From an uncultured Nitrospiraceae bacterium (GTDB lineage: Bacteria; Nitrospirota; Thermodesulfovibrionia; Thermodesulfovibrionales; SM23-35), in the NCBI GenBank assembly GCA_964558725.1, contig CAZLFE010000005.1, positions 1 to 40,847 of the forward strand: a stretch of 40,847 nucleotides of DNA, read 5' to 3'. Shown in pieces: positions 2,530 to 40,444 of this stretch. The notes under the pieces are model-generated. The model was given only the letters and a program-made list of their open reading frames with translations. It ran no database searches and was not told the DNA's origin. The position numbers and the translations under genes were made by a program. Position 1 is the first letter of the stretch. Each line of letters starts with the position of its first letter.

Positions 2530-3266
2530 TTAATTACCTCTTTAATCGGTTTTACAACCACCTTGTTTGCAAACCGTAAGTCTATGTAATCAACGGGTAT
2601 CTTTCTCTTCTGTATCTCTTCCTCCAGTTCAAGAAGACGTTCAAGTTTTTCTCGATACTCTCCTGCTCCTATCTTGATAACAGTTCCATCGATGATTGAT
2701 GTAATTTCCTGGGGCTTTGACAGGACTATCTCAATTTGGTCTCTTTCTGAAGAAAACCCCATATCATTCATCGTCTTTGCAAGGGTAAGGGCATCTAAAA
2801 AACCCTCCTTTTCTTTAAAGGGATCGCCTGTGATTATGGGAAGGAAAGGAATCGGATTGTCTTTAAGCTCTTCGAGAAGGGTGCCCTTATCATCGGTTAA
2901 AAAAACATGTCCGTTTACATCGAGAAGCGCAAAGGGGACTACTTCACTTACCACTATTGATAAGGTCTCGGGGAACTCTTTTCGCACCCTTACGGATTTG
3001 ATCCAGGGGGATTTGAGTAACCTCTGGCTTATCTTTTTTCCCGGAAGCGTAATCAGACTTTCATTACTGTGAATCCCTGCAAGTGCCCTGAGTTCATCAA
3101 CGGATAGATGTTTGTTGCCGGTAAAAACAATTCTTTTAATCGGGAATGCTGCTTTTATTTTGATGAAAGAAACATATGCGACTGTTACAAGGGCAGAGAC
3201 AAGCACCACAAAAGTAGTAATACCTATCAATAAACTGCCCTTATTTTTCTTTTTCTTAACTTTCAT
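2526..3266 (-). CDS. ftsQ: cell division protein FtsQ (POTRA-containing)
   Basis: Single N-terminal TM helix after a Lys-rich tail, followed by a POTRA-like region ([17 protein letters not shown]). Located between ddl and ftsA. ATG 3266 is preceded by GAGGTG at a 6-nt spacing; the track ORF starts at GTG 3275. Confidence 0.85.
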
Positions 3267-4185
3267 CGAGAGCACCTCTGAGCATTTCTTCTATTAAGGC
3301 AGAAAAATCAAGACCTGCAAGCCTTGCTACTTTTGGGAGAAGGCTCGTTTCGGTCATACCTGGAATAGTATTGACCTCAAGTACGTACGGCTTACCCTTT
3401 CTATCAATCATGAGGTCAACCCTGGTAGCACCTCTACAGCCGAGGGCACGATGGGCCGAAAGGGCCGTTTCCTTTGCCCTCTCGTAAACCCTCCTGCTTA
3501 TTTCCGGAGGAAGTATATATTCAGTAAGACCTTTTTCATATTTGGCTTCATAACTGTAAAATTCAAGAGATGGCCGCACCTCAACCCCTCCAAGCACTCT
3601 GTCATTGAGTATTCCTATGTGAACCTCTTTCCCTTCTATATATTTCTCTATGATTGCCCTGTCACTAAAGGAGAAGGCATTTTTAACAGCAGAGCCAATC
3701 TGTTTTTTGTTTTTCACGATACTCACCCCAACGCTTGAACCTTCTGTTGCAGGCTTGACAACCCAGGGCAACGGGAAGCCTACTTTTGATGAGTCTATGC
3801 TCTTTGCTCTATGGTCTTTGCTCAGCACGATAAAAGGTGATACGGGAATTTTGTGATAGAGGAATATTTTTTTGGATGCCTCTTTATCCATCGCAAGGGC
3901 AGATGCGAGAACCCCTGATCCTGTGTATAATATTCCGAGAACTTCCAGCATACCCTGCACAGCACCGTTTTCTCCGTGTCCTCCATGGAGTGCAATGAAG
4001 GCTATCTCTACCTTCTTCCGTTTAAGGGCATCGCAAAGGTCAGACCCGGCATCTATTGCAACGGCATCATACCCTAAGTCCCTGAGAGCGTTATAGATTG
4101 CCTTTCCGCTCCTGAGAGACACTTCCCTTTCGGCTGACCTCCCGCCCATCAGAACACCTATACGTTTATCTGTTAACATCCGCAT
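3256..4185 (-). CDS. ddl: D-alanine--D-alanine ligase
   Basis: ATP-grasp protein with typical Ddl blocks ([35 protein letters not shown]). dcw context. Confidence 0.95.
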
Positions 4186-32508: not shown

Positions 32509-33804
32509 CTATATTTTCCTAAAAACTACTGCAGCGTTATAACCGGCAAAAGCGCAACATATTTTTAGCACTGTTTTTAACTCCAATTTGACTTTTTCTT
32601 TTGCCACGTCCATTTCCATTTTAGGATGAGTTTCCTCAACATTCAAGACAGGCAATACTAAATTACTTTCTAAACAAAGCAAAAGTATAGCTGTCTCTAA
32701 CAAATTGCTCCCCCCTAAATTATGCCCAATGTAAGGTTTAAATGTAGTAACTAAGGGTCTTTTAGGGTTTGTTCCAAAAATATCTGTAATTGCTTTTGCT
32801 TCGTATCTATCAATAACGGCATTACCCACTCCATGAGCACACACTAAATCAATTTCTTTTTTATCAATCTTGCTAAACCTTATCGCTTCTCTTATCGCTC
32901 TTTGGTAGAAATCATCTCCCACCTTTGGATAAATTACCTTCCATCCTTCTTGAGAGAAACCCCCGCCTAAATATTCAGCGTAAATTTTCGCTTTTCTTTT
33001 GACTGCGTGCTCCCAATCTTCCATTACAAGACCACATCCTCCATCTCCAAAAACAATCCCATTTGATTTTTTACTAAATGGCTTTATTCTGCCATCTTCA
33101 GCATACATATTTAAGTCTTTAAACCATAGATACTTATATATCCGTGGATAATCCGCTGAGGCGACAATTACCGCCGAACTTCGGCCGGTTTTAATTATTT
33201 GGCTGGCAACTTCTAAAGCATAAAGCCCTGAAGAACAAGCATTGTTTACAAATAGAGAATACCCGTGAATTTTAAATGTTCTTAGGATGTGAAACATAAC
33301 CATAAAAGTTTGCAAATCGTACGCACTCTTGACTGTTGCATAATGGTATTTTTCAGAAAATTGTCTCTTTGTGATTGGGTCAGATTTCTTCTTAATCTTC
33401 GCAAAAGAAACATCAATACATTTAGAAATATACTGCTCTAAACCGGCATTCTCATGGGTAACTACACACCCTATATCATTATCTTCAGGATTATATTCTA
33501 ATTTACTATCCTCCAAAGCTAACTTTACTGCAGCTAAAAGATAATACAAATCTATTATATCCTCTCCATCTTTCCAATCCTTAATCTCTTGTAATGTGTT
33601 CTTATCTATATTGAATTTTTCAATATCAAAGTTATCTATTTTGTGCAAATAAAATCTTTCCCATAATTCACCATCAACAAACCACTCTTCTAGTTTGATA
33701 TTTGTTTTTCCCTCAACAAGAGCGCTCCATAGAGAATCTTTACCTATCCCAATAGAAGTCAAAGGTCCTATCCCTGTTACCACCACTCTTTTTTCTTGCA
33801 TCAT
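32509..33804 (-). CDS. beta-ketoacyl synthase family protein (Cys-His-His present, atypical insertion)
   Basis: VNNACSSG (Cys), CAHGVGN (His) and IGHNLGGSN (His). About 40 extra residues before the Cys loop relative to FabF. The start ATG overlaps the upstream KS stop (ATGA). Confidence 0.88.
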   Translation of the reverse strand: MMQEKRVVVTGIGPLTSIGIGKDSLWSALVEGKTNIKLEEWFVDGELWERFYLHKIDNFDIEKFNIDKNTLQEIKDWKDGEDIIDLYYLLAAVKLALEDSKLEYNPEDNDIGCVVTHENAGLEQYISKCIDVSFAKIKKKSDPITKRQFSEKYHYATVKSAYDLQTFMVMFHILRTFKIHGYSLFVNNACSSGLYALEVASQIIKTGRSSAVIVASADYPRIYKYLWFKDLNMYAEDGRIKPFSKKSNGIVFGDGGCGLVMEDWEHAVKRKAKIYAEYLGGGFSQEGWKVIYPKVGDDFYQRAIREAIRFSKIDKKEIDLVCAHGVGNAVIDRYEAKAITDIFGTNPKRPLVTTFKPYIGHNLGGSNLLETAILLLCLESNLVLPVLNVEETHPKMEMDVAKEKVKLELKTVLKICCAFAGYNAAVVFRKI

Positions 33805-35018
33805 TTATTCCCCCCATTTTTGACTACCAGACAAGAATTATTACCACCAAAAGCGAAACCATTATTTAATGCAATATTCACTTTCTTTACTTTTGCTCTA
33901 TTAGGAACACAATCTATGTCACATTCTGGGTCAGGGGTCTCAAAATTTATAGTTGGAGGGATGATGTTTTCTTTCACAGTAAGACAGCAGGCTAATGCCT
34001 CAATAGCAGATGCAGCGCCCATAGTGTGGCCAAGCATAGATTTTATTGAACTAACAGGAATTGTTTTACTTCGTTCTTTAAAAAGATTTTTAATTGCGGC
34101 ACATTCAGTTTTATCGTTGCTTTGCGTACCGGTTCCATGAGCGTTTATATAATCAACCTCTTCTTTCTGAATATCCGCTTCTTTTAAGGCTTTCCGTATT
34201 ACTTTCTCAACACCCTCTACATGGGAGGCAGTCATATGGTAAGCATCACAACTAATGCCATAGCCTAATATCTCTGCGTAGATGTTCGATTTTCTTCTTA
34301 AAGCAAACTCTATCGGCTCTAAGACAAGAATTCCGGCTCCTTCTCCAACGAGCATTCCCCTCCTATTTTTATCAAAGGGCTGACATTTCTCATGAGCCAT
34401 TGCATAGAGGCGATGGAAGCCACAAAATGCAACTTTAGAGAACGAATCAGCACCCCCTACAACAGCATAATCTATATCTCCTTTTTTTATTAAATCAAAC
34501 CCGTAACCTATGGCATAGTTACCAGCAGCACAGGCTGTGGGAATAAGATAATTTGGTCCCAGTAGTTTAAAGTAATTAGCGATATTAGCAGATAAATTAT
34601 TCGGCGAAGACTGCAATATTTTTGTTTTGTTAATCTTATCAGACCCTTCCTTAATCCAGGCATCAATGGATTCCTCCAATGGTCTCTCACCCATTGTAGT
34701 CCCAATAAAAACACCAGCTCTTTCTTTACCGATGTTTCTCAAAGATAATCTGGAATCTTTTAAAGCCAGAGATGCAGCGGCTATAGCCAATTGGGATGTG
34801 CGACCCAAGAATTGGATTTTTCTTTTGGCAATAAAATCTTCAGGAATAAAATTCTTTATCTCACCAGCATAATGACACCTGAATTCTTTGGTGTCAAATG
34901 AAGTAACTCTACTTATACCTGATTTGCCATTTATTATGGCCTTCCAGAACTCATCTTTGCCAATCCCTACAGATGAAACTACTCCTAACCCTGTAACTAC
35001 AACTCTGCGTTTATTCAT
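33801..35018 (-). CDS. beta-ketoacyl-ACP synthase II-like (FabF-type KS)
   Basis: PTACAAG (Cys), NAHGTGT (His) and MLGHTMGAAS (His). Full-length FabF-like collinearity. Confidence 0.93.
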   Translation of the reverse strand: MNKRRVVVTGLGVVSSVGIGKDEFWKAIINGKSGISRVTSFDTKEFRCHYAGEIKNFIPEDFIAKRKIQFLGRTSQLAIAAASLALKDSRLSLRNIGKERAGVFIGTTMGERPLEESIDAWIKEGSDKINKTKILQSSPNNLSANIANYFKLLGPNYLIPTACAAGNYAIGYGFDLIKKGDIDYAVVGGADSFSKVAFCGFHRLYAMAHEKCQPFDKNRRGMLVGEGAGILVLEPIEFALRRKSNIYAEILGYGISCDAYHMTASHVEGVEKVIRKALKEADIQKEEVDYINAHGTGTQSNDKTECAAIKNLFKERSKTIPVSSIKSMLGHTMGAASAIEALACCLTVKENIIPPTINFETPDPECDIDCVPNRAKVKKVNIALNNGFAFGGNNSCLVVKNGGNK

Positions 35019-35019
35019 T

Positions 35020-35307
35020 TTACCCCGTGAGATAATTTTTAAGCCGATTCTTTAGATACCTTTTGCCCCATGCTGTTTTCAAATATTTCTCTCTTATTCT
35101 TGCATCATGTTCATTTAAGCAAGCTTCGTAATATATAATTTCAAATGGTACCCTATTTTTAGTAGATTGAGTCCTGCCATTATTATGTTCTTCAATGCGT
35201 CTCTTAAGATTCCGGGTTGAGCCAGTATACCATTTGTCATCTTTTAAACTTTCAGAACATATGTATAAATCATCACAATATCTCACGGGGTTTAATGCTA
35301 AATACAA
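35020..35307 (-). CDS. small GIY-YIG nuclease family protein, copy 1 (start uncertain)
   Basis: KWYTGST (YIG), RRIEEHN (conserved Arg) and IIYYEAC (Glu) are present. The only in-frame starts are TTG 35307 or GTG 35286, both inside the fabZ 3' end/TIR. The ATG that matches copy 2 (35273) is out of frame by 1 nt. Confidence 0.65.
   Translation of the reverse strand: MYLALNPVRYCDDLYICSESLKDDKWYTGSTRNLKRRIEEHNNGRTQSTKNRVPFEIIYYEACLNEHDARIREKYLKTAWGKRYLKNRLKNYLTG
35023..35290. mobile_element. 268-bp cassette A: GIY-YIG ORF bounded by perfect 12-bp terminal inverted repeats
   Basis: CCCCGTGAGATA (35023-35034) and TATCTCACGGGG (35279-35290). It fills the whole fabZ-KS gap. A second homologous cassette lies at 37311-37577, and both interiors are 244 nt. 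Confidence 0.6.
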
Positions 35308-35719
35308 GATTTGCTTTTGCCACGATTTTGTTACTCACTCTCGCTATAACATCTGTTATTGCAGCATAATCCAGAAACTTTACTTTCTCTGGTTCTATAA
35401 TCATTTTATTACCGGGATATACCGGAGCCAAGAACTCCGCCTTTACCTTGCCTAAATAATAATCGGGGAGCGCTTTGGCTATTTCCGGCTTATCAACAGA
35501 ATAAAGAATTATTGAAGCCTGTGCCATTGCTTCTATTATTAAAACACCCGGCATTATAGGTCTGCCGGGGAAATGCCCCTCAAAAAAACTTTCATTGTTT
35601 TTGATATTTTTGACAGCCACAATTTTTTGGGTACCATCAACTTCGATTACCTCATCAATAAAAAGAAAAGGCTCTCTATGAAGTAAAATAGATTCAATTT
35701 TTTCTTTATCCCAGTTCAT
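35273..35719 (-). CDS. fabZ: 3-hydroxyacyl-ACP dehydratase, FabZ-type hot-dog fold
   Basis: LLHREPFLFIDEV, GHFPGRPIMPGVLIIEAMAQ (catalytic His and Glu). The last six codons (KPREIL) and the stop lie inside the cassette A inverted repeat. Confidence 0.9.
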   Translation of the reverse strand: MNWDKEKIESILLHREPFLFIDEVIEVDGTQKIVAVKNIKNNESFFEGHFPGRPIMPGVLIIEAMAQASIILYSVDKPEIAKALPDYYLGKVKAEFLAPVYPGNKMIIEPEKVKFLDYAAITDVIARVSNKIVAKANLVFSIKPREIL

Positions 35720-35740
35720 ATATGAGCCTTTTTTAGAACA

Positions 35741-35762
35741 TGAGATAATTACCTATCTCACG
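35741..35762. repeat. degenerate end-to-end copy of the cassette inverted repeats at the ACP-fabZ junction
   Basis: TGAGATA (35741-35747), attacc, TATCTCACG (35754-35762). The right arm matches 9 of 12 nt of the TIR and the left arm 7 of 12. It overlaps the ACP stop codon. Confidence 0.45.
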
Positions 35763-35998
35763 TCCTTCAAGTGCTTGGTATATTCCATTATCAGTCTTAG
35801 ATTCCTGATATTTGGGATATCTTTTTCGGGTATAATAATCCGATACTTCTTCTCAAAAGCAGCCACTATCTCAATTGCCTTTAATGAATCTATCCCCAAA
35901 TCTCTAAAAAAGTCTGCATCAAGCGTAAGTTTTTCCACAGGAACCTCAGTAATATCTGCAATTATTTTCTTTACTTCTTCTTCGAAGTTATCAGGCAT
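35753..35998 (-). CDS. acyl carrier protein (divergent, non-housekeeping type)
   Basis: 81 aa. Phosphopantetheine site LGIDSLKAIEIV. Basic C-terminus, unlike the acidic AcpP. Confidence 0.9.
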   Translation of the reverse strand: MPDNFEEEVKKIIADITEVPVEKLTLDADFFRDLGIDSLKAIEIVAAFEKKYRIIIPEKDIPNIRNLRLIMEYTKHLKDVR

Positions 35999-36010
35999 GT
36001 ACCCTCCTTC

Positions 36011-37243
36011 TCATTGATATCTGGATATAATTGATGACGCATTGCTTCCACCGGGACCAAAATTGTTAATTAATACATTGTTTATTCTCGCTATCCGTGA
36101 TTTGTTGACCACATAATCAAGGTCGCAATCATTGTCTTTTACCTTATAATTAATTGTTGGCGGTATAAAATTATTAACTATACTGCCTATAGAAGCAGCA
36201 ATCTGAAGTAGACCACCTGCACTAAAAGGCTCTCCTATCATTGATTTAATAGAGCTCACAGGGATATTGAAAGCAAACTTGCCAAAAACATCCTTTATCG
36301 CCTTTGTCTCTAATCTGTCCTGTTCAGGTACAGAATTTGCCGAAGCACTTATATAATCTATATCTGTAATCCTCAATCCAGAATCTCTAACTGCTTTCTT
36401 CATACTTTCTCTTAATCCATCTGCTTCCGGATTATATTTACCCATTTTATAGGCATCAAAACAATTGCCTATGCCTTTAATCTCAGCATAAATATTTGCC
36501 TTTCTTCTTTTAGCATATTCCTCATCTTCTATCACTATAACCGCTGCTCCTTCACCTAATATGATTCCATTTCTTCTTTTATCAAAAGGGCAGGATAATT
36601 CTTCACCTTTGATACCGGCAAAAAAACCTAACCTGTAAAATCCAATAAAATTTATCAAAGCAAAACTCTCCACAGCTCCTACCAGAACTGCTTTAATTCG
36701 TCCCAATTTGATAAAATCTACTGCGTACTTTAATGCGTCTAAGCTTGATGTATAACCTGTAGAAATGGTTGTATTGAATCCTTGGATATTAAAGCGAATT
36801 GAGACCTGACTTGAAGCAGCATTTACCACTGTTCCAGGAAAAAGAGCAGCATCAGTGAAAAGAGGGCCTTCCTTTATTGCTCCTTTTTCAAATTCAGCAA
36901 AATTCCAAAGGGAAGACAAGGTAGTTCCTGTGCAGACACCTATGTCATCTGTATTTTTATAGTTAATTGTTAATTTTGCATCCTCTATTGCTAATTTTGC
37001 AGCAGAACACAATAGCCTTGCAGTTCTGTCAAGGCTTTTTAAACCTTTCAAGCCTAAAAAATCCGTGGGTTTAAAATTATTAATTTCACCACCCAACTTA
37101 CACTTAAACTCGCTTGTATCAAACCGATTGATTGGCTTAATCCCGGACCGGCCTTCCTTCAAAGCTGTCCAGAATTGTTCCTTTCCAATACCATTTGGAG
37201 CAATTACTCCTATGCCCGTTGTTACTATTCGTTTTTTACTCAT
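36011..37243 (-). CDS. beta-ketoacyl synthase-like protein lacking the catalytic triad (chain-length-factor-like partner)
   Basis: Collinear with FabF. The Cys loop reads ISTGYTSS (Cys->Tyr), the first His block YISASANSV (His->Ser), and the second His block SMIGEPFSAGG (His->Glu). Confidence 0.88.
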   Translation of the reverse strand: MSKKRIVTTGIGVIAPNGIGKEQFWTALKEGRSGIKPINRFDTSEFKCKLGGEINNFKPTDFLGLKGLKSLDRTARLLCSAAKLAIEDAKLTINYKNTDDIGVCTGTTLSSLWNFAEFEKGAIKEGPLFTDAALFPGTVVNAASSQVSIRFNIQGFNTTISTGYTSSLDALKYAVDFIKLGRIKAVLVGAVESFALINFIGFYRLGFFAGIKGEELSCPFDKRRNGIILGEGAAVIVIEDEEYAKRRKANIYAEIKGIGNCFDAYKMGKYNPEADGLRESMKKAVRDSGLRITDIDYISASANSVPEQDRLETKAIKDVFGKFAFNIPVSSIKSMIGEPFSAGGLLQIAASIGSIVNNFIPPTINYKVKDNDCDLDYVVNKSRIARINNVLINNFGPGGSNASSIISRYQ

Positions 37244-37246
37244 TTA

Positions 37247-37306
37247 CCCCGTGAGATATTTAAATTTAGTGCCAACCTATTTTGACCCTTTATTTATCTC
37301 ACGGGG
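37247..37306. mobile_element. 60-bp gene-less unit B with the same 12-bp inverted repeats (MITE-like or internal-deletion derivative)
   Basis: CCCCGTGAGATA (37247-37258), 36 nt, TATCTCACGGGG (37295-37306). It lies directly upstream of the KS-like gene start (37243) and 4 nt from cassette C. Confidence 0.45.
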
Positions 37307-37310
37307 TGAA

Positions 37311-37559
37311 CCCGTGAGATAATTCTTAAGACGATTCTTGAGATATCTTTTACCCCAGGCTGTCTTCAGATACTTCTCTCTCATTCTTGCATCGTGCATT
37401 TAAACAAGCTTCGAAATATATAATTTTAAATGGCTTTCTATTTTTAGTAGATTGGACATCACCATTATTATGTTCTTTAAACCGCCTCCTGAGGTCACGA
37501 GTCGAACCTGTATACCATTTATTATCTTTTAGGCTCTGTGAAACATATGTATAAATCAT
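37311..37559 (-). pseudogene. GIY-YIG nuclease family gene, copy 2, frameshifted
   Basis: Starts at ATG 37559 (MIYTYVSQSLKDNKWYTGST...). The ORF closes at 37350 after 69 codons. A 2-nt deletion relative to copy 1 lies around 37393-37398. The shifted frame still encodes DARMREKYLKTAWGKRYLKNRLKNYLTG, 27/28 identical to the copy 1 C-terminus. Confidence 0.7.
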
Positions 37560-37577
37560 AAATAATATCTCACGGGG
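37311..37577. mobile_element. 267-bp cassette C: frameshifted GIY-YIG ORF bounded by inverted repeats
   Basis: CCCGTGAGATA (37311-37321) and TATCTCACGGGG (37566-37577). The right end abuts the fabG stop codon (37578-37580). Confidence 0.6.
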
Positions 37578-38318
37578 TTAACTCATTCCACCATCTATAA
37601 CTATTGTCTGACCTGTAATATAGCTTGCCTCATCGCTGACTAAAAATTTCACCACCTTTGCCACTTCTTCCGGGCTCCCTAACCTTCCTAATGGTATCTG
37701 TTTTATTATCTGACTCTTATATTCTTCTTTTAAATCTTTAAGCATATCCGTCTCGATAAAACCAGGAGCAACTGCATTAACTCTGATATTATAGGATGCA
37801 ACTTCCTTAGCAAGAGATTTAGTAAAACCAATTATCCCTGCTTTAGAGGCAGCATAATTGGTCTGTCGTGGCAGACCTACGATTCCGCTTACTGAGGTAA
37901 TATTCGCGATAATGCCACTTTTCTGTTTTATAAATGTTATGATCGCGGCTTTGGTAAGATTGAATGTTCCATCTAAATTAGTATTAATTACTTCATGCCA
38001 ATCATTAAGTTCCATAAGGGCAAGTGCTTTATCTTTAATTACTCCGGCATTATTAACCACAATATCTATGCCACCAAATAATTCTTTAGTATTATCAACC
38101 CAGGATTTTACAGCATCATAGTCTCTAATATCCACCTGAAATGATTTAACGTTAACATCAAAATATTTTATTTCTTTTTCCAAATCCTCTGCATCTTCAT
38201 TACTTTTTAAGAAATTAAAACTAATATTCGCACCTCCCCTGGCTAATTCGATAGCAATAGCCCGCCCTATTCCTCTAGTAGCGCCACTAATGATAACAGT
38301 CTTATTCTTTAGTGACAT
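37578..38318 (-). CDS. fabG: 3-oxoacyl-ACP reductase (SDR)
   Basis: TGATRGIGRAIA cofactor motif, NNAG, and catalytic S...YxxxK (YAASKAG). I place the start at ATG 38318 (MSLKNKTVIISG). The track extension to 38369 adds 17 non-conserved residues. Confidence 0.92.
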   Translation of the reverse strand: MSLKNKTVIISGATRGIGRAIAIELARGGANISFNFLKSNEDAEDLEKEIKYFDVNVKSFQVDIRDYDAVKSWVDNTKELFGGIDIVVNNAGVIKDKALALMELNDWHEVINTNLDGTFNLTKAAIITFIKQKSGIIANITSVSGIVGLPRQTNYAASKAGIIGFTKSLAKEVASYNIRVNAVAPGFIETDMLKDLKEEYKSQIIKQIPLGRLGSPEEVAKVVKFLVSDEASYITGQTIVIDGGMS

Positions 38319-38578
38319 TTCCCGTATACGCCTTTTAAATCCATGTCTTGCATAGTTTACCATAACCAAAAAATGCCTCTAATATAAAGCCTTTTCTGCA
38401 ATTGGTAAGCATTTTTTGTGCTGAACAATCAGACTGATTAGCATTCAGAATCAGAACACAGATTACTTCGGTCGAAATGACCTCGTAATGACAACTAAAA
38501 ATTTTTTCTTTGCCTTATTCTTAAAAGTTTTACTTACTTTGTCTCCCCTGATGTGAGGAAAATCGGAGATGCTTCTAT

Positions 38579-40306
38579 TCATGACGAGGGGCTTTTTCTC
38601 TTTAGTATCTTTATGAGAGAATCATGACTCAAGGTATTCAGTATGTCTTCCTTTTCAAGCCAACCCCTTCTTGCGATAGAGACTCCATAAGCCATATAGT
38701 CGAAGTGGCTAATTATATGTGTATCTGTGCCTATTACCAGGGGTATTCCCTTTTCCTTTGCCATCCGTGCATGTACATCATTCAAATCGAGTCTTAAGGG
38801 GTAGGCATTTATCTCGATGGCAGTACCAGTTTCTTTCGCTACTTTAAGGACTTCATTGATGTCTATATCATAAGAATCCCTCTCTCCAATTAATCTGCCT
38901 GTTGGATGGGCAATAATGGACACAAAAGGGTTTTTCATTGCAGATACTAATCTCTTTGTAAGCTGTTCCCTGCTCTGCTTGAAACCTGAATGGATCGAAG
39001 CAACAACAATGTCCATCTTTTTCAGTACATCATCAGGGAGATCTAATCGGCCGTCGCTCCTTACATCTACCTCGATGCCAGTGAGAAGCCTGAATCCTTT
39101 CAACTTTTTATTGAATGCATCGATCTGTTTCTTCTCCTCCAACAACCTTTCTGCAGTTAGCCCTCGTGCGATACCGAGGCCTTTTGAGTGGTCAGTAATG
39201 GCTATGTAATGATATCCTCTCTTCCGGGCTTCTGCTACCAACTCCTCAAAATCATGGCTTCCATCACTCCATTTACTGTGTACGTGGAGATCACCTTTGA
39301 TGTCCCCAATCTCCACGAGTTTTGGCAGTCTCCCAGAGAGGGCAGCCTCTATTTCGCCTGTGTCCTCCCTCAACTCAGGAGGGATATAGGGAAGATCCAG
39401 AATCCTGTAAACATCCTCTTCCTCTTTTCCCCCAAGTCTCTTGTCATCTTTTTCTCTGAATATACCGTATTCATTTATCTTTAGACCTGATTTCACAGCC
39501 ATCTCTCTCAATCGTATGTTATGAGCCTTGCTACCCGTGAAGTAGGCAAGGGCAGCGCCAAAACTTTCTTCTTCAACAACGCGAAGGTCAACCTGCAGTC
39601 CTTCATGTATTATGACACTTGATTTTGTCGGTCCCTGCATAAGTATCTCCTTGATATGAGGCAGGTGAACAAAGGCTTTCATTACCTCTTTGGGATTTTC
39701 TGAGGTGGCCAATATGTCAATGTCCTTGATAGTCTCCTTCCACCTCCTGATGCTTCCTGCTACACTCAGGTTTTTAACAGGGGCTTTCTTTCTCAGGTGC
39801 TCGAGTATATCATTGGCAATAGGGAGAACCTTTCCCAAGGGCTGCCTTTCCATCCCCCTCTTCAGCATTTCAATACCCTTGAGTATATTTTCCTCTGTCT
39901 TTTCCTTAATTCCTGGCAGGCCAATAAGCTTATGTTCCCTGGCAAACCTTTCGAGAGTTTCTATATCTTTTACGTTTAATTTTTCGAAAAGAAGTTTTGC
40001 TGTTTTCGGGCCGAGGCTTGGTACGGAGAGGAGGGTGCTGAGACCTGCTGGCACCTCTTTTTTGAGGTCTTCATAGAACTGGAGCCTTCCTGTTTTAACA
40101 TATTCTTCAACCTTGCCTGCAAGATCCTGTCCAATTCCAGGGATCTTCATCAGTTCATCTTTTGGTGTTTCTGCAACATCCCTTGCGAAGCCTTCTATAT
40201 TCTGTGCAGCACGTCTGTAAGCCCTAATCCTGAAGGGGTTCTCCCCCTTAATTTCGAGCAGATCAGCAATGTCATTAAAGATTCTTGCGATCTCCTGGTT
40301 TTTCAT
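38579..40306 (-). CDS. polX: DNA polymerase X family protein with C-terminal PHP phosphoesterase domain
   Basis: N-terminal NQEIARIFNDIADLLE..NPFRIRAYRRAA (8-kDa/HhH), GSIRR, and PHP motifs (DLHVHSKWSDG, AITDH, GTDTH). I place the start at ATG 40306. Confidence 0.92.
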   Translation of the reverse strand: MKNQEIARIFNDIADLLEIKGENPFRIRAYRRAAQNIEGFARDVAETPKDELMKIPGIGQDLAGKVEEYVKTGRLQFYEDLKKEVPAGLSTLLSVPSLGPKTAKLLFEKLNVKDIETLERFAREHKLIGLPGIKEKTEENILKGIEMLKRGMERQPLGKVLPIANDILEHLRKKAPVKNLSVAGSIRRWKETIKDIDILATSENPKEVMKAFVHLPHIKEILMQGPTKSSVIIHEGLQVDLRVVEEESFGAALAYFTGSKAHNIRLREMAVKSGLKINEYGIFREKDDKRLGGKEEEDVYRILDLPYIPPELREDTGEIEAALSGRLPKLVEIGDIKGDLHVHSKWSDGSHDFEELVAEARKRGYHYIAITDHSKGLGIARGLTAERLLEEKKQIDAFNKKLKGFRLLTGIEVDVRSDGRLDLPDDVLKKMDIVVASIHSGFKQSREQLTKRLVSAMKNPFVSIIAHPTGRLIGERDSYDIDINEVLKVAKETGTAIEINAYPLRLDLNDVHARMAKEKGIPLVIGTDTHIISHFDYMAYGVSIARRGWLEKEDILNTLSHDSLIKILKRKSPSS

Positions 40307-40444
40307 AAGAAAAGTATAGCAGATTATTCTTCCTTGATAAATGAAGGTTTTTTTGAAGGCTTTTAATAGTTCAAAAAGATAGAAACATAGTATGGCGTGA
40401 CAGATTATTACCAATTAAAGCACATAGTATGAAGTAAAAATGCG

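Follow-up and report, generated by a model that had tools for sequence, protein, structure and literature searches.

The Ssn family comprises single-domain GIY-YIG proteins of about 94 aa (cd10448) encoded by genes that lie between two hairpin repeats, NTS/SRM; the repeats are also present in hundreds of copies (PMC11893778). SsnA binds the hairpin and cuts single-stranded DNA (ssDNA) only, on one strand and just upstream, with no cleavage of double-stranded DNA (dsDNA) or RNA, and the NTS-ssnA-NTS arrangement was likened by its authors to insertion sequence architecture and to REP/RAYT (PMC11893778). GIY-YIG open reading frames (ORFs) have also been reported in non-intron insertions of rRNA genes of the Candidate Phyla Radiation (CPR) (PMC11270868). 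Here we analyse two GIY-YIG cassettes, A and C, in a 40,847-nt stretch of contig CAZLFE010000005.1 from an uncultured Nitrospiraceae bacterium (the window hereafter), where they occupy two junctions of an aryl-polyene-like type II synthase operon on a Nitrospirota-like metagenomic contig. The cassettes are probably two old, decaying copies of a widespread insertion-sequence-like element of ~270-290 bp, accompanied by two ORF-less remnants. The element consists of an 84-aa single-domain GIY-YIG gene that forms the loop between the arms of an imperfect inverted repeat of 16 bp, TTYACCCCGTKAGATA ... TATCTMACGGGGTRAA.

The initial annotation of the window did not recognise such a unit as a described kind of element. 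The homologous Ssn architecture was published in 2025 (PMC11893778), and the pairing of an Ssn-type nuclease with a hairpin repeat is thus already known; new here are a different repeat and a gene nested within the hairpin. No earlier description of the window repeat or its family was found in the literature, the nearest reports being PMC11893778 and PMC11270868.

Repeats and cassettes in the window

The initial annotation had counted five copies of an exact 12-mer and one 11-mer, and a scan of the window together with shuffled sequences bore out both counts and coordinates. The 11-mer CCCGTGAGATA occurs six times, at 35024+, 35279-, 37248+, 37295-, 37311+ and 37566-, against an expectation of 0.48 from shuffles, none of 100 of which reached six. 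Five of the sites carry the full 12-mer and the site at 37311 the 11-mer only. All six lie inside 35024-37576, so that the repeat is indeed confined to 2.6 kb of the 40.8-kb window. The layout of the window is matched by four near-identical contigs. An Rfam search of the region gave one sub-threshold chance match (IS009, 21 bits against a gathering score of 117). The features of the element copies are as follows.

37311-37581, minus strand: cassette C, full-length element at the fabG|KS junction, starting right after the fabG stop codon TAA (37578-37580)
37566-37581, minus strand: 5' (ORF-proximal) arm of cassette C, minus-strand sequence TTAACCCCGTGAGATA
37350-37559, minus strand: GIY-YIG ORF remnant of cassette C, 69 aa, with a canonical ATG start (MIYTYV...); PF01541, E 6.5e-12
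37311-37322, minus strand: 3' arm of cassette C, TTATCTCACGGG on the minus strand, one G missing
37243-37310, no strand assigned: mini-hairpin 1, ORF-less; on the minus strand TTCACCCCGTGAGATA, a 36-nt loop and TATCTCACGGGGTAAA; arm pair 37247-37306, 60 bp
35738-35763, no strand assigned: mini-hairpin 2, degenerate, 26 bp, at the ACP/fabZ junction; on the minus strand ACGTGAGATA, loop GGTAAT and TATCTCATGT
35019-35294, minus strand: cassette A, full-length element at the fabZ|KS junction, missing from the collinear relative L217 and present in the relative L081
35279-35294, minus strand: 5' arm of cassette A, TAAACCCCGTGAGATA on the minus strand
35020-35286, minus strand: GIY-YIG ORF of cassette A, 88 aa, GTG start at 35286 and stop TAA at 35022-35020; PF01541, E 1e-12
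35019-35034, minus strand: 3' arm of cassette A, TAT CTC ACG GGG TAA A, which reads Y-L-T-G-stop; the KS ATG (35018-35016) lies 1 nt past the stop

Most of the earlier description of the cassettes held. Their interiors are 244 nt each (35035-35278 in cassette A, 37322-37565 in cassette C), and the right ends named there share the 16-nt sequence AATATCTCACGGGGTT, identical at 35277-35292 and 37564-37579. A hand count from the translations gave 36 identical residues among the 46 N-terminal ones (78%), and both ORFs match the GIY-YIG domain PF01541 above its curated cut-off, with the E-values listed above and no other domain found. On the minus strand, the cassettes do fill the gene junctions, fabZ|KS for A and fabG|KS for C. 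The repeat length was revised: the inverted repeat is present, but its true length is about 16 bp rather than 12 bp, the right arm is coding, and the stop codon falls in the outermost positions.

Anatomy of the element

On the minus (coding) strand the unit reads TT-N-ACCCCGTGAGATA, an 84-aa GIY-YIG ORF, and TATCTCACGGGGT-R-AA. Written out in full, this is TT-N-A-CCCCGTGAGATA, 0-10 nt, ATG, the 84-codon ORF, and the end TAT CTC ACG GGG T-A-A. Because the ORF end spells Y-L-T-G-stop, the right arm is itself coding sequence, and KNYLTG is kept as the C-terminus in every phylum sampled. Among 82 homologous ORFs, which come from the 80 loci of GTDB genomes that were kept, 76 lie within an inverted repeat of 12 bp or more, in more than 10 phyla. 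Together with the at least 120 metagenome contigs carrying ORF-less copies, these place the arm pairs well beyond the window locus, the distribution on which the initial annotation had made mobility depend.

A sequence logo built from 72 copies anchored on the CCCC-G-T core defined the repeat as T T Y A C C C C G T K A G A T A, 16 bp in length and spanning positions -8 to +7. The two arms match in 88-100% of copies at each of these positions except -6, and beyond -8 the similarity stops abruptly. As in an insertion sequence, there is thus a terminal inverted repeat, 16 bp long, imperfect and with a sharp edge at -8. No recognised transposase (DDE, HUH/Y1, serine or tyrosine recombinase) was found in the element, whose sole ORF is the 84-aa GIY-YIG nuclease.

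Position -6 is complementary in 17% of copies; a left C stands against a right A (stop TAA), or a left T against a right G (stop TGA). The same bias is repeated in ORF-less copies, with 55 of the C/A type and 35 paired among 112. The state of this position tracks the element subfamily over unrelated insertion contexts, and is therefore read as a conserved imperfection of the element and not as target sequence. That tracking also opposes an asymmetric target spanning positions -8 to -6 (TTC^AAA = TTT^GAA), which was considered and rejected. We infer that the -6 mismatch may be a strand-discrimination mark for a strand-specific ssDNA nuclease.

Elsewhere in the stem, the arms change together, giving pairs such as GTGAGATA/TATCTCAC, GTTAGATA/TATCTAAC, CTGTTAAATA/TATTTAACAG and GTTAGAGA/TCTCTAAC. 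Several of these changes are synonymous, falling in the Leu and Thr codons of the Y-L-T-G tail, and this synonymous covariation argues for selection on arm pairing beyond that on the peptide alone. The stem mismatches comprise 10 G.T, 7 A.C and 12 others.

State of the window copies

Alignment with the intact orthologues of a relative revealed that the cassette C ORF carries a 2-nt deletion (AATG--CACG), which shifts the frame ahead of the REKYLK glutamate. The ORF is a pseudogene in which the catalytic Glu has been lost by frameshift. The cassette is collinear with the orthologous copy at L081 7496-7770. Its 3' arm abuts mini-hairpin 1 through the spacer T-TC-A, and the abutted arms fold with -12.9 kcal/mol (z -8.0). 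Mini-hairpin 1 itself gives a DNA fold of -16.5 kcal/mol (z -8.1) and is directly followed by the KS start ATG (37243-37241). The arm pair 37247-37306 is a separate ORF-less hairpin adjoining cassette C, which the initial annotation had not accounted for. The degenerate mini-hairpin 2 folds with -5.7 kcal/mol (z -5.2); the ACP frame terminates within it (...D-V-R-TAG), and a more decayed homologue is found at the ACP|fabZ junction of L217. All three structures are strongly preferred when folded as DNA.

At cassette A, the fabZ frame enters the left arm, gaining ...K-P-R-E-I-L before a stop at 35273-35275. Compared with the L081 copy of cassette A (L081A), a 1-nt deletion after codon 6 places the canonical ATG (35273-35271) out of frame, so the frame is open only from the upstream GTG, and the N-terminal strand of the protein is altered in the window. 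An intact 84-aa version of the ORF with 97% identity is present in a related sample (P0002). The KS starts directly follow the right arms, as GGGGTAAAATG and GGGGTAAATG. Both nuclease ORFs in the window are damaged, and the arms therefore persist there only as intercistronic hairpins.

Filled and empty junctions

FabZ orthologues 70-85% identical to the window FabZ have three kinds of C-terminus. Native proteins end in ...SIKKNE, SIKTNE, SIKKE or SIQKK; the ending ...SIK-PREIL(S) marks an element inserted after SIK (window and L081), and ...KKNE-PREILS marks an element three codons further on (L089-L091). The empty sites that the initial annotation proposed to look for in relatives were found at fabZ|KS in L086, L087, L088 and L217, where fabZ and KS directly overlap, reading ...AATGAATAAA... 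or ...AATGAGTAAAAG. On either side of cassette A, which it lacks, L217 matches the window collinearly at 84-86% nucleotide identity; the net difference amounts to 268 bp, and four flank bases by the right arm differ between the two (ACTA versus TAAA). A neighbour-joining tree of FabZ, a short protein giving low resolution, has filled and empty states interspersed. The group as a whole has gained the element more than once, or has both gained and lost it.

In the Nitrospirota metagenome-assembled genome L081 (GCA_040756155.1), intact copies of 84 and 87 aa occupy both junctions, in host DNA that is 83-87% identical to the window and collinear through the cassettes. The cassettes are thus orthologous with those of L081, and the insertions at the window locus are old.

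In L089-L091 the KS start GTG appears to be made from the right end of the element. At L089 2420-2470, the GTG in GGGGTGAAAAG appears to be built from a degraded element, and the start chosen by the gene caller lies still further inside it. At the empty fabG|KS junction of L088 (1470-1500), the KS frame lacks an ATG, GTG or TTG close to where it should begin (...GAGTTAACCTGAAGAGACGA...), which could be due to a 1-nt assembly error or a CTG start. In-silico deletion of the element as a screen for junction-spanning ORFs was dropped, since the 100 offset combinations artificially fuse co-directional genes.

Distribution and conservation of the nuclease family

The nuclease family to which the window ORFs belong (the window family) comprises more than 4,000 protein clusters at 90% identity, with lengths of 84-87 aa and 60-90% identity between phyla. 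These include Nitrospirota, Patescibacteria, Ignavibacteriota, Omnitrophota, Planctomycetota, Bacteroidota, Elusimicrobiota, Verrucomicrobiota and others. In GTDB species genomes at least 600 places were matched, and 587 were confirmed. At several loci the ORF is present in two or three copies within 6 kb. Residues Y8, Y20, G22, R30, H34 and E66 are invariant among 28 family members, so that the catalytic set of GIY-YIG nucleases (two Tyr, Arg, His/Tyr and Glu) is complete. The 84 residues are wholly occupied by the catalytic domain, with no DNA-binding domain, and the best relatives in the PDB are the UPF0213 protein BH0048 (1zg2, E 3.8e-7) and SLX1.

Nonsynonymous (dN) and synonymous (dS) divergence was determined for the cassettes and the neighbouring gene. 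For cassette A, comparison of the window with L081A gave dN 0.043 and dS 0.375, and comparison of the paralogues L081A and L081C (the cassette C copy of L081) gave dN 0.033 and dS 1.26, while the adjacent fabZ gave dN 0.10 and dS 0.87. These values indicate that the intact nuclease is under stronger purifying selection than the host biosynthetic enzyme. In the broken cassette C (dN 0.165, dS 0.78) selection is relaxed. The dS of cassette A (window 35019-35294 versus L081 9976-10266) does not reach half the value for the neighbouring fabZ, which hints at later exchange between lineages or at constraint at the DNA level.

Genomic context and ORF-less copies

Neighbouring long ORFs are mostly co-oriented with the nuclease gene (62:14 upstream, 59:12 downstream). 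In 49 copies both neighbours point the same way as the nuclease gene; the end of the upstream ORF falls from 35 nt inside to 5 nt before the left arm in 33 of them, and in 22 the downstream ORF starts at -6 to +14 nt from the right arm. The element therefore typically sits exactly at the stop/start junction of two operon genes. The left arm holds stop codons in two frames, and the stop of the nuclease ORF lies in the outermost repeat positions. No copy was found in an rRNA gene or intervening sequence among 20 CPR loci; only tRNA neighbours were seen.

ORF-less copies (minis) consist of two arms and a short loop of 6 to ~110 nt and are frequent near full copies, with six in L003 (three tandem 55-bp units among them), five each in L004 and L027, and four in L076. 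Perfect minis of the form ACCCCGTGAGATA-N(4-34)-TATCTCACGGGGT were found on at least 120 metagenome contigs; 112 are distinct, and 79 have TT...AA flanks. One loop type (GGCAAAGaCGT, 11 nt) is found within at least eight different flanks. A full ORF lies nearby in only ~10 of the at least 120 mini contigs and is missing from ~110 of 120. Abutted copies are typically exactly 2 nt apart, as GGGGT-GA/TC-ACCCC, and the junction between cassette C and mini-hairpin 1 in the window is of this type. Minis can also form in place, as in L089, where the position of cassette C holds the arms and a 14-nt interior; in the fabZ|KS insertion of L089 itself, the ORF has been exchanged for unrelated sequence.

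At L004 2936-3280, a full copy lies between two 38-bp minis whose 6-nt loops, CGAAGT and TGAAGT, are nearly identical. The three tandem 55-bp minis of L003 (1838-2080) have a GC-rich inner hairpin. In six copies, drawn from at least three phyla, the insertion splits a tyrosine-recombinase gene in or just before the motif ...ELLGH-xxxx-TT-x-IYTHV (L002, L017, L019 at ~2950-3240, L015 at ~3490-3790, L061 and L056). The upstream part of the interrupted gene ends in ...HPVR-stop in the left arm, and the part with the catalytic Tyr has no start codon. Frame logic at these sites gives an insert of the core plus 2 or plus 3 nt, and was left unused for defining the element ends because it is inconsistent.

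Comparison with known systems

A 95-aa Ssn-like family (REKQLKKW...) was retrieved, of which one member, L094, was verified and used as a proxy for SsnA. The flanks of the L094 gene read TGTCATTCCGGC-CCTGA-GCCGGAATCCAGA plus an inverted copy, corresponding to NTS-like hairpins. Comparison of the window family with the L094-type family by hhalign gave a probability of 98.9% (E 1.3e-17, 36% identity over 72 columns), and BLASTP gave 38% identity over 65 residues (E 1e-11). These sequence similarities suggest that the window family may be a sister family of Ssn. Both are multi-phylum families of single-domain GIY-YIG proteins of ~85-95 aa with an insertion-sequence-like architecture, the gene lying between inverted copies of a short repeat that is also present gene-free in many copies. 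They differ in the C-terminal third, TAWGKRYLKNRLKNYLTG in the window family versus KKWNRKWKLELIE..NP.W.DL in Ssn, and only in the window family does the right arm code for YLTG-stop. The sequence GTCATTCCYGC was not found in the window, and a regular expression of the published SRM motif matched none of 78 sequences but missed the positive control L094 as well, so that this negative is uninformative. The L094 gene itself (Doudnabacteria, 1459-1830) lies between the co-oriented operon genes thyA and folA and occupies the junction as the window element does. NTS/SRM-like hairpins, for example TGTCATTCCTGCGGAAGCAGGAATCCAGAAC, were seen in other intercistronic gaps of the operon in relatives (L081 9085-9160, L089 ~290-370).

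REP/REPIN-RAYT and IS200/IS605 systems also combine dispersed intergenic palindromes with one small gene of nuclease type that lies between inverted copies of the repeat, and as in the window family, an ssDNA hairpin is the likely substrate. They lack target-site duplications; none was found for the window family, whose ends are ambiguous within ~4 nt. Their enzyme, an HUH/Y1 transposase, acts through covalent intermediates and can rejoin DNA, whereas the window family encodes a hydrolytic GIY-YIG nuclease, and RAYT genes are usually single-copy whereas the window-family ORF is multi-copy. Phage Seg proteins and I-TevI-like enzymes share the GIY-YIG domain, the co-oriented position between conserved genes and the presence/absence polymorphism. 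They differ in having a C-terminal DNA-binding domain of ~100-150 aa, no terminal inverted repeats and no ORF-less derivatives. The comparison with free-standing homing endonucleases of phages drawn in the initial annotation is therefore weak, the window family having neither a DNA-binding domain nor a phage match. Intervening sequences of rRNA genes and the GIY-YIG insertions in CPR rRNA genes resemble the element in their small ORF and in inverted repeats able to form a stem in the transcript, but differ in location, as no examined window-family locus lies in an rRNA gene. Miniature inverted-repeat transposable elements, such as Correia elements, are likewise small, have terminal inverted repeats, are often co-transcribed with their neighbours and occur in many copies; the window family differs in having a visible gene-bearing parent, arms of 13-16 bp and minis down to 36 bp. 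An integron gene cassette was rejected: no attC-like bipartite structure (R''-L''...L'-R', at least ~57 bp) is present, the arms are 13-16 bp, and there is no integrase beside the operon.

Proposed mechanism and alternative explanations

The empty sites, the independent insertions and the dispersed ORF-less derivatives make a compact element, mobile now or once, the best reading of the cassettes. The initial annotation had weighed a compact mobile element against a domesticated module. A discrete unit bounded by terminal inverted repeats and encoding a YhbQ-sized GIY-YIG protein is what we find; a recent arrival at this locus is not, as the copies are orthologous with those of L081 and decaying. 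By homology with Ssn, the nuclease would recognise the arm hairpin in ssDNA and nick beside the stem. Such cutting, combined with host replication and repair, could lead to the spread and upkeep of both gene-bearing and ORF-less hairpins. From its anatomy, the ORF, presumably promoterless, would be expressed by read-through from the host operon and by termination-reinitiation. With the upstream stop in or just before the left arm, the ORF stop in the outer repeat and the next start within a few nt, an intercistronic insertion would be tolerable.

A bolder version, which we regard as doubtful, is that this is the smallest autonomous DNA mobile element known: ~270 bp with a lone 84-aa GIY-YIG protein, moving as or through a single-stranded hairpin, with the nuclease cutting beside the stem, the -6 mismatch choosing the strand and the host completing insertion. 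It would then be an operon-junction specialist, supplying upstream stops and a coupled downstream restart, and perhaps one of a broader unrecognised class of hairpin-bounded mini-nucleases (compare the PD-(D/E)XK cassette at the same junction, described below).

Several findings weigh against the reading of the cassettes as copies of such an element. Hydrolytic GIY-YIG nucleases are unable to join DNA; insertion would thus need host factors, and this is the weakest step. No target-site duplication is seen in the consensus flanks, which are inverted (TT...AA), or in the comparisons of filled and empty sites, by which the initial annotation had proposed to define one; given the net gain of 268 bp and the altered flank bases, the element ends are ambiguous within ~4 nt. 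At the window locus the insertions are fixed and old, with no sign of current activity. Searches of phage and plasmid collections with tblastn gave no match at E <=1e-8. The parallel with Ssn is also incomplete. The repeats are unrelated, TTYACCCCGTKAGATA in the window family versus CGTCATTCCCGCG...GCGGGAATCYRG in Ssn, and each Ssn flank is a self-contained hairpin, whereas the window-family arm is half a hairpin; with neither arm a hairpin in its own right, the gene occupies the loop of the one that both form. Finally, the strong co-orientation and tight coupling with neighbouring genes also fit a function at the RNA level.

Such a function is the basis of an alternative that we consider unlikely, namely that the arms act only as a long-range stem in the transcript, which undergoes processing (RNase III could do this, as it does in rRNA intervening sequences) or joins stop to start, the cassette being a tolerated or domesticated module. 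About 82% of copies are co-oriented with tightly coupled stops and starts, the terminal stem appears in both the minimum-free-energy and the centroid RNA folds of cassette A, and the arms in the window are still perfect though both ORFs are broken. The occurrence of GIY-YIG ORFs in non-intron insertions of CPR rRNA genes (PMC11270868) fits as well, but none of our 20 CPR loci is in an rRNA gene. An explanation confined to RNA leaves unaccounted for the identical sharp-ended units in more than 70 unrelated contexts, the tandem minis with 2-nt spacers and the minis at non-operon sites. The stem mismatches contain no excess of G.U, with C.A commoner than U.G at position -6, the RNA fold of the whole cassette improves only slightly on shuffles (z -1.8), and SsnA is inactive on RNA (PMC11893778).

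Classical homing by a free-standing GIY-YIG endonuclease, in which the empty dsDNA junction is cut, the gene is copied by recombinational repair and the inverted repeat is incidental or regulatory, is similarly improbable. It would suit the intergenic site in a conserved operon, the patchy presence among close relatives with states interspersed in the FabZ tree, and the missing target-site duplication. The flank bases on the insertion side, which differ between filled and empty sites as co-conversion would give, and the dS of the orthologous cassettes (0.375), which lies below that of the adjacent fabZ (0.87), point the same way. However, the 84-aa protein consists of the catalytic domain alone, without a DNA-binding domain, identical sharp ends occur in dozens of unrelated targets, ORF-less hairpins with the same arms are dispersed, phage records gave no match, and the homologous Ssn enzymes leave dsDNA uncut (PMC11893778).

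That the arms are recombination sites used in trans, for example by a tyrosine recombinase of the integron/Xer type, with the GIY-YIG gene as cargo, seems very improbable indeed. The integron core-site consensus is GTTRRRY/RYYYAAC, and the arms of many copies contain GTTAGAT and ATCTAAC, which fit it; several copies, moreover, interrupt tyrosine-recombinase genes at the LGH....TT..Y motif. The window arms, however, read GTGAGAT and not GTT, most loci have no adjacent recombinase and the window operon contains none, and the cargo is always the same gene, with its C-terminus encoded by the arm.

If the cassettes are indeed copies of a nuclease-bearing element, the principle of Ssn, in which a minimal GIY-YIG nuclease goes together with a hairpin repeat of its own, would extend to a second large family. 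Its anatomy is cleaner than that of Ssn, with the gene inside the hairpin, sharp ends, a conserved mismatch, and visible ORF-less derivatives and filled/empty alleles. This makes it directly testable whether a bare nuclease domain drives the spread of palindromic repeats. The family could also provide new pairs of enzyme and sequence for site-specific ssDNA cleavage, and would account for many of the operon-interrupting genes annotated as "GIY-YIG nuclease family protein" in uncultured phyla. For annotation, the element explains odd C-terminal extensions (...PREIL) and neighbouring start codons made from element ends.

Genes of the region and further observations

The genes around the cassettes are all on the minus strand and are given here in reading order.

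38579-40414, minus strand: PolX
37578-38369, minus strand: fabG-like SDR, stop codon TAA at 37578-37580
36011-37243, minus strand: KS, start ATG at 37243-37241
35753-35998, minus strand: ACP
35273-35719, minus strand: FabZ/ApeI-like dehydratase
33801-35018, minus strand: KS, start ATG at 35018-35016
32509-33804, minus strand: KS/CLF-like gene

At the fabZ|KS junction of L092 (480-1000; also in L093), another Nitrospirota-like lineage has a different small nuclease gene, a 142-aa PDDEXK_3 ORF (PF13366) enclosed by an inverted repeat of its own, GCCACAGAT...ATCTGTGGC, immediately ahead of the KS ATG. Further downstream there is a second PDDEXK_3 gene. Small nuclease genes with inverted repeats at operon junctions may thus form a broader class. 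Two of the CPR copies are directly followed by a tRNA gene (L039 ~3230-3310 and L037 ~3240-3325), and in L039 the right arm (ACGGGCT) overlaps the initial tRNA bases.

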